In this document: positions 18,155 through 22,333 of the stretch, one piece after another | Layout of the letters: each line of letters opens with the position of its first letter | How positions within the stretch are numbered: position 1 is the stretch's first letter | Assembly: GCA_964447395.1 (NCBI GenBank) | Contig: CAYUSO010000006.1 | Location: 10,154-74,153 of the forward strand | Length of the DNA: 64,000 nt | Direction: 5' to 3' | From: an uncultured Rhizobium sp. | GTDB lineage: Bacteria; Pseudomonadota; Alphaproteobacteria; Rickettsiales; UBA1997 | Notes under the pieces: model-generated | Databases searched by the model: none | The model's input: only the letters and a program-made list of their open reading frames with translations | Told to the model about the DNA's origin: nothing | Program-made: the position numbers and the translations under genes

Positions 18155-21100
18155 TTAGGCGACTCTCGCTGCTCGTTGTAAAATTTCAGGCAAGCGAGTG
18201 CAGGATTTGGCTCTGAAACTTGTGGATGGAGGTTCGGCTGGTGATTCCACATCTTTTCCCCTAGCTGAAATTTCTTTTTTTGGAGAATCCGTCTTGTATC
18301 TCTCTTCCCCATTTTGATCTCTTACGCGATAGGTGACGGTTGATTCCTCAACGATTTTCAAAGTTGCTGTTAATTTTCTCTTAATAAATTCGTCATCTTT
18401 ACCCGGATATAGCCTTCTTAACAAATCCATAGATTCGCTTTCTTTGTTGCGGGATAAACCTCCCAAAACTTCGCCATCTTGCATGATGACAGCTTCGTCG
18501 CGGTGTATATGCACGCCACTATTTGCCGCGGTAAGTCCGACTGCTATTTTGGTTTTAGTTTTAGCATCTAACTCCTGAAGACGTAATAGCCTGAATGGAT
18601 GCGCTATTCCAGCATCAATTTCCTTAGGATCATCTCCAACAAAAAGCTTCGTTTTCTCATCATAAATCGGCTCATCTTTATCAAGATTAATCTGAACCGA
18701 AGGATCGGCGGCAACGGATTGCGGAGTTGTTTTTGTAGGTCGATAAGGAGAAGCCTTTGCTGAAAGTTCAGTTGCTGCAGAATGTCCTTGATGCAAAACC
18801 GCAACGCTACGCGCATCTCCGTTAACTAGCGAAACGGCTTTAACGCTGTATTCGTCATGCATTTTGCGAACTTCATCGCCGACCTTCTTCCCGAAAATTT
18901 CGGTTAATTCGGAAGTGCTTAACCTCGGATTTTTTGTGCTAAGTGGGCAGAAAGAGCCGTCTCTTTTTTTGTGAAACACAACTCCAGAATCAATCACCAC
19001 ATCTCCAACTTTATGATCTTCTAAAACCTGCACGCCATCACGCCAAACCATAATTTCCCCATTGCTGTCGCATCTTCTGGCTCTGAGATAGCAAGAAGGA
19101 GAACCGTTTAGGTAAACATAAGCCGTGTTATCGCCTTTGCCATTAAAGGTGACAGTTGCTGTTTTTGGATGTCCAGCAGGATGTAAAATTGAAGTTGAAT
19201 CAGGAATTGGACTATGCGGCAAAGGCGCTTCTAGCAATTTGCTCAGACCTTTTTTGGCATCGAATTTTTTATCTCTCTCCAAAAACTGCGCATGAATTTC
19301 AGCTTCCTCATTGCTGTTGAGAGAATAGCGGAAATTGGCGTCTTCGATTGATTGCTCAACTCTTGCAGCCATGAGGTGGCGCATTTGGTGAGATGATTCT
19401 TCCAGAGCTTTTTGTTTTTGAACTTTGGTTGCCTTTTTGCCTTCAAAAATTTCAATGAGCTGTTCTAGTCTTTTTCGATCTCCTTCTAATAGAGGCACTT
19501 TTGCCTTATCTTCCTCTTCTTCTTTCTTGGACTCCTCTAGGAATTTTTTTACTTCAGCGATGGCTTGTTTCAGACCCTCACTCTTATCCTGAAGAGCTCG
19601 CATTTTGGAAGCTTTCTGCTCGATTGCATCATCGGCTTTAAACTCTGCTCCTTCCATCAGTTTGGCTAATTTTGCGGATAAGTCTTTGTAGGGTCTAAGA
19701 ATGGATTGCCCAGCCAGTTCTTTCCGCTCTGTAGATTCTTTTCTTTGTTCTGCGATTTCTTTTTGGATTTCTTCTTCCGAGGCTGCTGCTTTTTCCCCCC
19801 TGATTTCTTGAGCAACATCATCAATCGCCTTCTGAAAATTCTGAATCTCGATATTCACAATCTCCCTGCCGGCAACAATCAAAATATCGGAAATTTCTCT
19901 GACTGATTCTACTGTCGAAATATGGCTTAAAACCGCTGCGTAATTTTCGCTATATTCCGGCAAAATTGAATTTTGGAAAACCTTTGGATCAACAAAAGTG
20001 GTCGTCGTTCCCCTCTTTGTTTGCGTTATGATCGCGCATTTATCTTCTTTTCTGCCATCGCGAGTTATGCCCTCGAGAAAAGCTAAAGAAACCAAAGGTT
20101 GATCATCAGGTTTTCTTTCAACTTCGCAGGCTTCCGCAACTTGATTTGTAAGACTTGAAAGACCTTCATCGCCTTGAAAAATATTTATAATTCCAAGAGT
20201 TCTATGCTCTTTAACTTTATCGCCAACAACTTGCGGAATTGAGGCTTGGTTGAAATATGGAGAATTTCTGATTCCATCCTCTTTTAGATCTGGAGAATTT
20301 TTTATTTCTTTGAGGCCATCTTGTGATTCATTGATTTCTTCTGCTTCTTCAACTTGCCATTCGACTTTTCCTCCTTTGACTTTACGCGAATCAAGAAGGC
20401 GTTTGTTGGCTGCGAATTCTTGGCGAGCTAGAAAGTCTGCGCCTACTGCTTGAGCTTTTGCTAATTGAGCTTCTCTTGCCGCTTCGATTTTTGCAAAAAG
20501 ATCTTTTTCATCCAAACTAAGCAATTTCTGAACCGTATTCTCTCCGAGATCTCCCCTAGTCATGAAAGAGGCTAATTCAGCATAAGCTCCTGACATTTTC
20601 CCATCGACAGCAGAGCTTTGAGTGAAGGATGCGAGGAGTCGTTGGGGTTTTAAGTGACGATTATCAGGAGTAAGATCATGCTCCACCAACCTATCCATCA
20701 ATTTCACAAACTCATCATAAGAAACATTCTTCAAATGCGGTTTTTTGGCTTTGTATTCCTCAAATCTTGCTAGATGATAAAAATCTATAAGATTTGGCTT
20801 ATCCTTAGACGAAAGATTTTTTGGATCATATTTCTCCATGAATGCAGAATCGTGGCTCTTCTTTTTAACTCCTTCACCAACGATATTCATCATCACCCTT
20901 TGGGCGAGATATCTGCGTTTGTCATCAACAGCAGTTGAGCTTGATAAAGATTGAACCCATTCGATGCTGTTACTAGGGTTAGTAGGGGATTTTATTTTCA
21001 ATCCTAGCAGATTTGCCATCTTTTCTATTTCATCATTTGACCGAGCACCTTTACCAAGACAAAGCAGAAGGTTTTCAAAATCTTCTGCATCTTTTTCTCC

Positions 21101-22333
21101 GCCTAGCAACTCCTTCAATTTTTCTCGTAGATTTTCTCCTGTTAACGAAGCGGCATCAGTAATTTTTTTAGCCAATTCCCGCATTCTTTTTTCTTCAGAA
21201 GGCGCAGGTTTTTGTTGTGTTGGAGATGCGGCGGCGGGGGTCGTTGGTATTGATGACGCTCCTCTTCGCGCCGCTACTGGATGGGTTGTCGGCGCTACTG
21301 GAGGGGTTGGCATTCTTGTTGTGGGGCGAGTCGGAGAAACTGCTGCTAATTTTTTAAAAGTCTCTTTGAACTGACCGACCTTCTCCACTTCGCCAGGGCG
21401 CGCTCCAACGACTTTTTCAAAAGCTCCTGTAAACTGACCTAAATCTTGGGAAAAAAAAGTTGAGCCCATCACTAAGTCTTTTGGTAATAGATCAGGTAAA
21501 GGTTGTGAGGAATCATCCAAAGCCTTCTTGAGATTTGAATTTGACGCAATTCCAGCAACTATCCCTAGTTCTAGACCAGGAAATCTCCTCAACACAATCA
21601 ACCTCTTCATTGCATCTTTCAAAGCGCGGCCTTGAAGATTTAGGCCGGGATAGCCCCAGTAGGGATCTCTACCAGCCGCATTTTCGATGAATAAATCTGG
21701 GTTTTCTGGCTTACCATTTTCAGCTTCAATCGAGGCTTTTAAGCTCTCGTAAATCTGATAATTTTGCGACAACTTCATCATCATACCCATAACCATCATT
21801 TTGTAGGGAATTTTTATAGTTTCCTTTTGAATTAAACCTTCTCTGACAGCTGCAAATTGTTGAGGATTTTGAAGATTGAATCGCTCGCTTGTAGGCAAAT
21901 TTTGTACAACAAGACCAGGCACACCGCCATCTCTGATGAGCCGTTTAAAGTCTCTACTGCCCAGAAAATCATTATTTTGAAGAGCGGGAATGCCACCCAG
22001 TGTCTGCGCGTAAGAAGCGTCTTCAGCTCCTCTTAGAGTGTATTCGTGCGTAGCCCCTAGAGCCTTAGCATCAGCGTTGCTTCTCGCTTCCAGAATTCTC
22101 CTATTTAAGTCCTCAGCACCATCTACGTTGGCTGCTCCGCGAGTTAATCTCTTGCTAAACTGAAAATAATGCTCGAGCGAGTGGAAGTAGTAGTCTCGAG
22201 CATTAATTTGAGCTAAAAATGGCGTGGCGTAAGTGTTGGCAAGAGCCCCGTCAATATCGTCGGCAAAGTTATACTTCCTTACTCCTGGTTGCGTCAATGG
22301 ATCAACTGCTGATGCCACTCCTGCTCTACTCAT
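18155..22333 (-). CDS. large multidomain protein with N-terminal NADAR (YbiA/DUF1768-like) domain; putative secreted effector
   Basis: 1392-aa intact ORF. The N-terminus has YYFHSLEHYFQFSK and GRDPYWGYPGLNLQGRALKDAMKRL. These resemble the YbiA/NADAR motifs SEHYFQAQK and DAYWGDG..G.N.LG..LM.LR. It is followed by a Pro/Thr-rich linker, long coiled-coil-like K/E-rich regions and a beta-rich C-terminal part of unknown family. Confidence 0.75.
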   Translation of the reverse strand: MSRAGVASAVDPLTQPGVRKYNFADDIDGALANTYATPFLAQINARDYYFHSLEHYFQFSKRLTRGAANVDGAEDLNRRILEARSNADAKALGATHEYTLRGAEDASYAQTLGGIPALQNNDFLGSRDFKRLIRDGGVPGLVVQNLPTSERFNLQNPQQFAAVREGLIQKETIKIPYKMMVMGMMMKLSQNYQIYESLKASIEAENGKPENPDLFIENAAGRDPYWGYPGLNLQGRALKDAMKRLIVLRRFPGLELGIVAGIASNSNLKKALDDSSQPLPDLLPKDLVMGSTFFSQDLGQFTGAFEKVVGARPGEVEKVGQFKETFKKLAAVSPTRPTTRMPTPPVAPTTHPVAARRGASSIPTTPAAASPTQQKPAPSEEKRMRELAKKITDAASLTGENLREKLKELLGGEKDAEDFENLLLCLGKGARSNDEIEKMANLLGLKIKSPTNPSNSIEWVQSLSSSTAVDDKRRYLAQRVMMNIVGEGVKKKSHDSAFMEKYDPKNLSSKDKPNLIDFYHLARFEEYKAKKPHLKNVSYDEFVKLMDRLVEHDLTPDNRHLKPQRLLASFTQSSAVDGKMSGAYAELASFMTRGDLGENTVQKLLSLDEKDLFAKIEAAREAQLAKAQAVGADFLARQEFAANKRLLDSRKVKGGKVEWQVEEAEEINESQDGLKEIKNSPDLKEDGIRNSPYFNQASIPQVVGDKVKEHRTLGIINIFQGDEGLSSLTNQVAEACEVERKPDDQPLVSLAFLEGITRDGRKEDKCAIITQTKRGTTTTFVDPKVFQNSILPEYSENYAAVLSHISTVESVREISDILIVAGREIVNIEIQNFQKAIDDVAQEIRGEKAAASEEEIQKEIAEQRKESTERKELAGQSILRPYKDLSAKLAKLMEGAEFKADDAIEQKASKMRALQDKSEGLKQAIAEVKKFLEESKKEEEEDKAKVPLLEGDRKRLEQLIEIFEGKKATKVQKQKALEESSHQMRHLMAARVEQSIEDANFRYSLNSNEEAEIHAQFLERDKKFDAKKGLSKLLEAPLPHSPIPDSTSILHPAGHPKTATVTFNGKGDNTAYVYLNGSPSCYLRARRCDSNGEIMVWRDGVQVLEDHKVGDVVIDSGVVFHKKRDGSFCPLSTKNPRLSTSELTEIFGKKVGDEVRKMHDEYSVKAVSLVNGDARSVAVLHQGHSAATELSAKASPYRPTKTTPQSVAADPSVQINLDKDEPIYDEKTKLFVGDDPKEIDAGIAHPFRLLRLQELDAKTKTKIAVGLTAANSGVHIHRDEAVIMQDGEVLGGLSRNKESESMDLLRRLYPGKDDEFIKRKLTATLKIVEESTVTYRVRDQNGEERYKTDSPKKEISARGKDVESPAEPPSTSFRAKSCTRLPEILQRAARVA

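Follow-up and report, generated by a model that had tools for sequence, protein, structure and literature searches.

NADAR enzymes have only recently been shown to reverse guanine ADP-ribosylation in DNA, and their roles beyond toxin–antitoxin pairs and phages are poorly understood. The domain has been described in small stand-alone enzymes, as the antitoxin of DarT1, in fusions with riboflavin enzymes, and as a module of RNA-virus polyproteins and of the nematode protein SNA-3 (PMC11125620, PMC9503650). Stand-alone bacterial NADARs are among those described (PMC11125620), and viral NADARs are typically standalone outside the RNA-virus polyproteins (PMC9503650). Here we analyse a 1392-amino-acid (aa) protein encoded on a 64,000-nucleotide stretch of an uncultured alphaproteobacterial genome (contig CAYUSO010000006.1; hereafter the window), for which a preliminary description, made from the sequence alone, had proposed an N-terminal domain with NADAR/YbiA-like signature blocks. 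The reading we favour, and hold to be probable, is that of a family scaffold bearing a very divergent YbiA-type NADAR head, with head-driven hydrolysis of a ribosyl N-glycosidic bond as the mechanism.

With the YbiA subfamily (PF08719; 2b3w, 8bau) the 1392-aa protein has in common both signature blocks, the E54/K61 pair, E217, and the D-x-x-W-G and G-x-N-x-x-G motifs; unlike that subfamily, it scores below the curated cut-off, has the G-R...D-W loop replaced, shows pairwise similarity to none of the known NADARs, and is fused to ~1100 residues of an uncharacterised family. The DarT1-associated NADARs (Schuller et al. 2023, PMC11543638) belong to the same superfamily, and the Glu and Lys equivalents of their E88 and K95, as well as of K115 (K90 here), are present. 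In contrast to them, however, our protein has no adjacent DarT, lies in a housekeeping context, carries a YbiA-type Glu instead of the catalytic Asp, and is a giant multidomain protein, not a small antitoxin. Precedents for NADAR as a module within a larger protein are the RNA-virus polyproteins, Caenorhabditis elegans SNA-3 with its three NADARs, and the riboflavin-enzyme fusions (TIGR02464) (PMC9503650, PMC11125620), whereas the partner here is a bacterial, lineage-specific scaffold in which polymerase, Rib and RNA-processing domains are lacking, and the surroundings contain no rib genes. The architecture of a NADAR on a giant scaffold was not found in the literature that could be searched. 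Judged from its residues, the protein is NADAR-like in its conserved chemistry yet departs from the family on two counts, its score falling short of the curated cut-off and its middle loop being replaced. What is new is thus a remodelled NADAR on an uncharacterised giant-protein family; the NADAR domain itself is already known.

NADAR homology of the N-terminal head

The open reading frame (ORF) proposed in the preliminary description runs intact from ATG to stop, and an identical copy of the gene is present on an independent Logan contig (L001). The head falls into two halves separated by an insertion:

18155..22333 (-), whole ORF, 1392 aa
22037..22276 (-), NADAR first half, residues ~20-99 (..G.LAN(T)..PF....SLEHYFQFSK....ADAKALG), from Pfam, TIGR02464, phrog_1017, hhalign and PADLOC
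21830..22036 (-), insertion of ~70 residues (~100-168), in the position that the G-R-x(n)-R-x-D-W loop takes in NADARs
21584..21829 (-), NADAR second half, residues ~169-250 (YKMMVMGMMMKLSQN...LFIENAAGRDPYWGYPGLNLQGRALKDAMKRL), from matches of the insertion-removed sequence, hhalign of the second half alone, and the control described below

A NADAR-type model was the top or sole match in four profile libraries, always on the same stretch (residues 24-99). The Pfam NADAR profile (PF08719) aligns residues 27-99 to its positions 9-76 of 163 (E 1.9e-5, 25.4 bits), TIGR02464, which describes NADAR fused to riboflavin enzymes, matches the N-terminus at E 3e-4, and phrog_1017 does so at E 8.9e-6; the latter is a phage YbiA/NADAR family that E. 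coli YbiA itself matches at 1e-38. The PADLOC candidate-system model PDC-M42C gave a weak NADAR-like match on the first half (E 4e-3). For comparison by hhalign, we built an alignment of 12 NADAR sequences, comprising E. coli YbiA, the Phytophthora NADAR (8bau) and ten phage NADARs. The YbiA sequence used is 100% identical to PDB 2b3w, by which the E. coli YbiA strings quoted in the preliminary description also proved correct. Residues 25-95 align to this profile with 73% probability (E 3e-5), and residues 153-275 alone fall on its second half in the expected register (P 1.2e-3).

Removal of the insertion brings the two halves together. A construct joining residues 18-100 to 172-265, with splice boundaries picked by eye, reached 95.4% probability in hhalign (E 1.7e-8, 126 columns), matched Pfam NADAR over positions 9-157 of 163 (E 2.8e-7, 31.4 bits), and matched phrog_1017 over positions 15-152 of 170 (E 3.4e-8). 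As a splice control, the first half was joined to each of 1198 94-residue segments from the rest of the protein. Segments starting at residues 164-175, the true second half, were best (up to 31.5 bits), compared with 16.7 bits for the first half alone and 20.4 bits for the best of the 1028 segments starting past residue 270, while 1000 shuffles of the true second half gave a mean of 15.1 bits (standard deviation 1.1, maximum 26.2). Both halves can therefore be taken as NADAR-like and as lying in profile order. The significant matches in four libraries, hhalign and the control together bear out the proposed signature blocks and place the N-terminus with NADAR, of which family it is very probably a homologue.

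At the residue level, YYFHSLEHYFQFSK at residues 48-61 and GRDPYWGYPGLNLQGRALKDAMKRL at residues 221-245 are the two peptide strings first quoted for this protein, and translation confirms their key codons (E54, 22172-22174; K61, 22151-22153) along with those of the second half (E217, 21683-21685; D223, 21665-21667; W226, 21656-21658). The first block, S-N-F ... E-H-x-F-Q-x-x-K in the family, reads A32-N33-T34 ... E54-H-Y-F-Q-F-S-K61, with Ser replaced by Ala and Phe by Thr, and the second reads F-I-E217-x5-D223-P-Y-W226-G227 ... G230-L-N232-L-Q-G235, with one additional residue between Glu and Asp. E54, K61, K90 and G93 match YbiA E48, K55 and, for G93, G78; E217, D223, W226, G227, N232 and G235 match E125, D130, W133, G134, N143 and G146. 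The columns invariant in the 12-sequence alignment (YbiA numbering) are F19, S30, N31, E48, K55, G78, W89, K104, L123, E125, D130, W133 and G134, of which N31, E48, K55, G78, K104, E125, D130, W133 and G134 are matched here; the protein thereby keeps N33, E54, K61, G93, K187, E217, D223, W226 and G227, plus N232 and G235. The middle-loop pattern A-K-x-x-G-R ... R-x-D-W is absent: K90 and G93 are present, A94 stands at the position of R79, W89 and D86 are unalignable, and the ~70-residue insertion lies here. An insertion between the blocks had been noted previously at ~150 aa; the insertion stands, its size does not, amounting to ~70 residues plus a few small ones. On its own, the insertion (residues ~100-168) has no Pfam match.

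The structure of the Phytophthora NADAR with ADP-ribose gives these positions a meaning: the distal ribose is held by E43 and E125, the pyrophosphate is contacted by K50, D130 and W133, and G78, R79, V81, Y84, D86, W89 and R93 form a loop round the adenine, the proximal ribose and the pyrophosphate (PMC11543638). For the P. nicotianae NADAR, the middle-loop residues K75, G78, R79, Y84, D86, W89 and R93 are described as binding the adenine and pyrophosphate of ADP-ribose (PMC11543638). The first-block Glu and Lys matter for hydrolysis in the E. coli C7 NADAR, Glu, Lys and Glu have been shown or proposed to be important for NADAR hydrolysis, and a Glu at position 125 marks the YbiA subfamily (PMC11543638). 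Mapped onto these contacts by alignment, the chemistry end of the pocket appears kept in its YbiA-type form, and the insertion appears to replace the adenosine-diphosphate clamp. This residue pattern suggests an enzyme with an altered substrate rather than random decay, although it leaves activity unproven.

Several observations weigh against the placement of the head as a working NADAR. The Pfam gathering score of 35.1 is not reached, either by the native sequence (residues 1-278, 25.4 bits) or by the insertion-removed one (31.4 bits), and in phmmer neither sequence showed pairwise similarity to 2b3w or 8bau, two NADARs of solved structure. When residues 1-332 were compared exhaustively by HMMER with 1.84 billion representative proteins, the query was the sole match. 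AlphaFold2, run on residues 1-277 as a single sequence without an alignment, gave a mean predicted local distance difference test score (pLDDT) of 32.9 and a predicted template modelling score of 0.19. The near-invariant R79 has become A94, W89 has no alignable equivalent, and S30 is replaced by Ala. Word-indexed homologue searches with the full protein and with residues 1-290 likewise returned only the query or nothing, and PDB sequence searches with the whole protein, the N-terminus and the insertion-removed construct found no NADAR and nothing else significant.

Could the resemblance be due to chance, the N-terminus being an unrelated domain? The score below the curated threshold, the lack of pairwise matches to solved NADARs, the low-confidence single-sequence model (pLDDT 33) and the splice boundaries set by eye would all allow it. 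Yet four independently built profile libraries put NADAR-type models top or alone on the same residues, the two halves match the two profile halves in the same order, the segment scan and the shuffles pick out the true second half, and the matched positions are the family's invariant positions, which together leave this explanation very improbable.

Another possibility is a pseudoenzyme, in which the NADAR-derived head would have kept its fold and some of the pocket in order to bind a ribosyl or nucleotide ligand, but would have lost all hydrolytic activity. The domain could be inactive because the pyrophosphate contacts R79 and W89 are lost and S30 is an Ala; the loop round adenine and pyrophosphate has given way to the insertion, the profile score lies under the family cut-off, and the head, of which no relative could be detected, is extremely divergent. 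Against this stands the retention of E54, K61, E217 and D223-x-x-W226-G227 in a sequence otherwise beyond pairwise detection. None of the catalytic-site residues E54, K61, E217, D223 and W226 is missing at the sequence level, and because the chemistry residues are kept where the rest has drifted, selection on the active site is suggested. We therefore consider a pseudoenzyme rather improbable, and the balance tips slightly towards a catalytically active head.

A TALE-repeat match directly behind the NADAR domain (residues 236-282, 21488-21628; GL....V..IASNS..K.AL.....LP.L), identical at 19 of 47 positions to ~1.4 repeats, was rejected as chance. Each single alignment has an E of at least 140, and the summed E of 7e-8 is uninformative because the target holds many repeat copies.

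The giant-protein family between zapE and mnmG

The C-terminal ~700 residues of the protein belong to a syntenic family that the preliminary description had missed. The regions behind the head, and the two flanking genes, are as follows:

22340..23644 (-), zapE (AFG1-like ATPase), upstream neighbour, its stop codon 6 nucleotides ahead of the big ORF's ATG
21194..21337 (-), Pro/Thr/Ala/Ser-rich linker, residues 333-380, 34 of 48 residues P/T/A/S
20654..20851 (-), family module A, residues ~495-560 (YHLARFEEYKAKKPHLKNVSYDEFVKL), two copies in L004
19844..20251 (-), family module M, residues ~695-830, common to L004, L002 and L006 (phmmer E 2.6e-15, 2.5e-8 and 1.5e-5)
19304..19816 (-), K/E-rich stretch, residues ~840-1010, by composition (26-40% K+E)
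18767..19447 (-), conserved family core, residues 963-1189, in all full-length orthologues
18158..18766 (-), C-terminal region, residues 1190-1392, poorly conserved, with a P-x-x-x-[RK]-[DN]-P-like motif near the end and a mildly basic tail (..FRAKSCTRLPEILQRAARVA)
16076..18133 (-), mnmG, downstream neighbour, starting 21 nucleotides past the big ORF's stop

The Pro/Thr-rich linker and the K/E-rich segments recognised earlier are thus both found, and the K/E-rich stretch is assumed from its sequence to be helical or coiled coil. For the ~1100 residues outside the head, searches of Pfam, PHROGs and PDB sequences gave no curated family match. The earlier statement that this part belongs to no recognisable family accordingly holds for Pfam and PDB, but not beyond them, since syntenic orthologues exist.

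These orthologues were reached through synteny. A scan for relatives of mnmG led to about a dozen uncultured alphaproteobacterial metagenome-assembled genomes (MAGs) in which mnmG is 56-77% identical. Their labels are varied and partly wrong ('Rhizobium sp. Q54', 'Alphaproteobacteria bacterium RIFCSPLOWO2_01_FULL_40_26', 'Rickettsia typhi' lake MAGs), and the genomes closest to the source are MAGs of uncultured alphaproteobacteria from freshwater and groundwater. In at least six of the related MAGs, a giant ORF (967-2717 aa) lies between zapE and mnmG:

L002, 5423-9964, 1513 aa
L003, 1066-3969, 967 aa
L004, 2696-9739, 2347 aa; the same protein as L082 4418-11461
L005, 5889-9956, 1355 aa
L006, 134-2506, at least 790 aa, the ORF being cut by the contig end
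L008, 1818-9971, 2717 aa

Two further loci (L007, L009) carry C-terminal fragments of the giant protein. The giant ORFs share residues ~690-1190 of the 1392-aa protein at 25-40% identity, and its core (963-1189) at 26-40%; they also have in common the module at ~695-830, a short module near residue 520, and a loose Pro-rich motif together with a mildly basic C-terminal tail, the net charge of the tails being only 0 to +4. The core follows the pattern ..LL..PLP.SP...SI..P...TV.FNG...Y..L.G...Y.RV....G...V..NG.......GDVVID.G.VFH...DG.Y.P..., and the 1392-aa protein shows both marks of the family, the zapE/mnmG position on the one hand and the core motif (LP.SP...FNG...GDVVID.G.VFH..DG) with module M on the other. 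It is therefore not an orphan but a member of a fast-evolving, lineage-specific family in a fixed slot.

The pace of this evolution is evident from the flanking genes, which in the same genomes are 73-86% (pilT), 71-77% (mnmG) and 55-70% (zapE) identical; with 25-40% identity compared with 55-90% for its flanks, the giant gene evolves much faster than its neighbours. Its length varies almost threefold among genomes whose mnmG is more than 70% identical, and the L004 protein contains a large internal duplication and long Ser/Pro/Ala-rich tracts. No Pfam domain was found in the giant orthologues, no significant PDB sequence match in the N-terminal parts of four of them, and no significant PDB or Pfam match with the profile of the family core, for which AlphaFold2 from a single sequence gave a pLDDT of 34. 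A word-indexed search started from the family core alignment gave nothing beyond the query, a genome-contig scan with the 1392-aa protein itself found nothing, and a scan of metagenomes with that alignment yielded no locus other than a second copy of L004.

The head does not follow the scaffold. Residues 1-332 have no aligned counterpart in any orthologue, a Pfam NADAR match at E up to 0.1 is likewise lacking from all of them, and a hidden Markov model built from our NADAR alignment matched the 1392-aa protein alone among the 3468 ORFs of all fetched loci. Among the orthologues examined, the NADAR head is unique to the source genome. The most economical account is that one family member gained a NADAR domain at its N-terminus, or that all the others lost it; the donor is now unrecognisable.

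As the preliminary description had it, the gene sits 6 nucleotides after zapE and 21 before mnmG in a co-directional array reaching to ppdK. This run comprises nine minus-strand genes with small or overlapping gaps, in the order zapE, the big ORF, mnmG, a TPR protein, a PilT-like ATPase, two amino-acid permeases, a DNA-alkylation-repair-like protein and ppdK; an AGG lies five bases 5' of the big ORF's ATG. The G+C fraction along the gene is 0.40-0.46 with the neighbours in the same range, so that, as was also noted before, composition does not set it apart.

Possible roles of the fusion

On the reading we favour, this giant, non-Sec family member, encoded in the fixed zapE-mnmG slot of a clade of uncultured alphaproteobacteria, would have its NADAR head joined through a flexible Pro/Thr-rich linker to a scaffold made up of module A, module M, the K/E-rich stretch and a putatively beta-rich core. 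The scaffold would supply localisation or partner binding, and possibly export. The head, if it adopts the NADAR fold, would hydrolyse an N-glycosidic ribosyl bond, either that of ADP-ribose on a base such as guanine or that of a related ADP-ribose or ribosyl derivative. Residues for the distal ribose and for catalysis would be retained, while the loop that clamps the adenosine diphosphate would have been swapped for the ~70-residue insertion; because of this replacement, the substrate probably differs from that of canonical NADARs.

NADARs also act as DarT1 antitoxins (PMC11543638, PMC11125620), and the head could in principle be an antitoxin of the DarT-NADAR type, or an anti-phage component, that guards the cell's own DNA from a cognate ADP-ribosyltransferase (ART); the weak match to the PADLOC candidate-system model would go along with this. 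Here the surroundings speak otherwise. The neighbours are zapE and mnmG, there is no mobile-element context, and the same-locus orthologues are without a NADAR domain. A Pfam scan of essentially all the window's non-overlapping ORFs that reach 150 aa detected no DUF4433 (DarT) or other ART, either adjoining the gene or elsewhere, so the DarT-like partner that the preliminary description had suggested looking for is missing from these ORFs. The position aligned with D171 of the E. coli C7 protein, YbiA E125, carries a YbiA-type Glu (E217) and not the Asp arrangement of DarT1-associated NADARs. We give this possibility next to no weight and, in view of the missing partner gene, the housekeeping array and the orthologues without the domain, regard a toxin–antitoxin or defence role in general as unlikely. 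Membership in a defence system, for which PADLOC gave just the weak NADAR-like match, was rejected.

The preliminary description had instead proposed a secreted effector. In this scenario, the protein would be translocated from an intracellular bacterium by a non-Sec or type IV route, and its head would reverse host ADP-ribosylation or destroy ADP-ribose-derived immune signals. By eye, from sequence and composition, no signal peptide or transmembrane helix is evident in the protein, which together with its large size, its eukaryote-like low-complexity Pro/Thr linker and its K/E-rich stretch would suit such a role. Divergence in the family far outpaces that of the neighbouring genes, as would be expected of an arms race, and the variable head, conserved C-terminal part and mildly basic orthologue C-termini resemble those type IV substrates that have their export signal at the C-terminus. 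Palindromic elements lie in frame inside housekeeping genes, as in Rickettsia, a hint of host association, and the lack of a cognate ART in the window makes a role in self-protection unlikely. On the other hand, the window yielded neither a type IV secretion gene nor an ankyrin domain nor any other hallmark of an effector, the gene lies in a tight housekeeping array whose slot is vertically inherited, the C-terminal tails have a net charge of only 0 to +4, and the relatives are freshwater or groundwater MAGs while the window encodes many biosynthetic enzymes. Taken together, we view a translocated effector as unlikely, if worth keeping in mind.

The host association underlying that proposal finds little in the window to rest on. 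The Pfam scan returned housekeeping and biosynthetic genes, including malic enzyme, ppdK, nuoM/N, aroA, carA, guaA, lpxB, asd, thiD, dnaA and ruvC, and no type IV secretion component, the sole secretion-related match being the PilT-like T2SSE ATPase. With these genes and with freshwater and groundwater MAGs as the closest genomes, the premise of an intracellular bacterium is unsupported by the window. Ankyrin proteins had also been claimed for the bacterium; no Pfam ankyrin match occurs in the scanned ORFs, and a motif scan gave none within an ORF. A 211-aa ORF without a Pfam match (40281-40916, -) has a stretch that looks vaguely ankyrin-like by eye (NLFHIVAENGDERMCEILIEYAS) and a basic C-terminal tail, and may be the source of that claim.

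In its layout, the protein resembles effectors such as the Bep proteins of Bartonella and Sca4 of Rickettsia, large proteins of intracellular alphaproteobacteria that do not depend on Sec and that combine an enzyme at the N-terminus with a targeting part at the C-terminus. It shares with them a variable head, a conserved C-terminal region, the absence of a signal peptide, a mildly basic tail and rapid divergence. Unlike them, it has no BID, FIC or vinculin-binding module, no sequence relationship to them was detected, and no genes for type IV secretion were seen in the window. A bolder proposal, which we put forward as doubtful speculation, is that the zapE-mnmG giants form a hitherto undescribed, exported, hypervariable family for host interaction or conflict, with a C-terminal delivery part and exchangeable heads, in a probably protist-associated clade. 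The present member would then be the first case of a bacterial effector that employs a NADAR head, its substrate loop remodelled, for removing ADP-ribosylation, or immune signals derived from ADP-ribose, in a cell other than its own.

Under the reading we favour, the protein would be a natural experiment in NADAR substrate specificity, in which the catalytic core is kept, the ADP-ribose-clamping loop is replaced by a new subdomain, and the head is tethered to a giant, rapidly evolving, lineage-specific protein. The locus also brings to notice an uncharacterised family whose place in the genome is conserved within a little-known clade of alphaproteobacteria. An exported family of this kind would amount to a new effector scaffold; without export, what lies beside the core cell-cycle and tRNA-modification genes is nonetheless a large and conserved protein.

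Repeats and other features of the window

A family of palindromic repeats (core AGTTCCCCGAGCGGAGTCGAGGGG ... CCCCTCGACTCCGCTCGGGGAACT, 75-160 nucleotides) occurs at eight or more sites, which include the following:

445-538
3676-3765
5116-5196
6103-6185
22659-22820
23747-23833
57613-57702
59179-59271

Two copies lie inside ORFs with the frame kept, in an ABC-F gene (5214-7094) and in zapE (22340-23644), and the elements resemble those of Rickettsia, palindromic sequences that insert into coding regions. A second short repeat, TTAGTCGTAAGTCGTGAGTTGTAAGTCGTAAG, is found at 17610-17657 within mnmG and at 23256-23324 within zapE, where it encodes similar in-frame peptide inserts (12 residues in mnmG, ..RLTTYSLQLTTK.. 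in zapE); both genes carry further inserts relative to their relatives.

Directly downstream of mnmG lie the PilT-like ATPase and the TPR protein, whose N-terminus is hydrophobic (14189-16086, -), a pair that is kept in relatives. The amino-acid permease genes beyond are tandemly duplicated (11393-12769 and 12778-14205, -), with the DNA repeats D1 and D2 at 68-76% identity. Three adjoining ORFs of 514, 225 and 278 aa at 50951-54009 (+) belong to no Pfam family; by eye they look membrane-anchored with coiled-coil character, and they could be pilus-assembly proteins. Finally, a DUF2497 protein (61463-62905) is present in identical form at three loci (L093, L094 and L095) from separate public sequencing runs (SRR11567520, SRR32910815 and SRR28520274), which indicates that the source organism recurs across samples.

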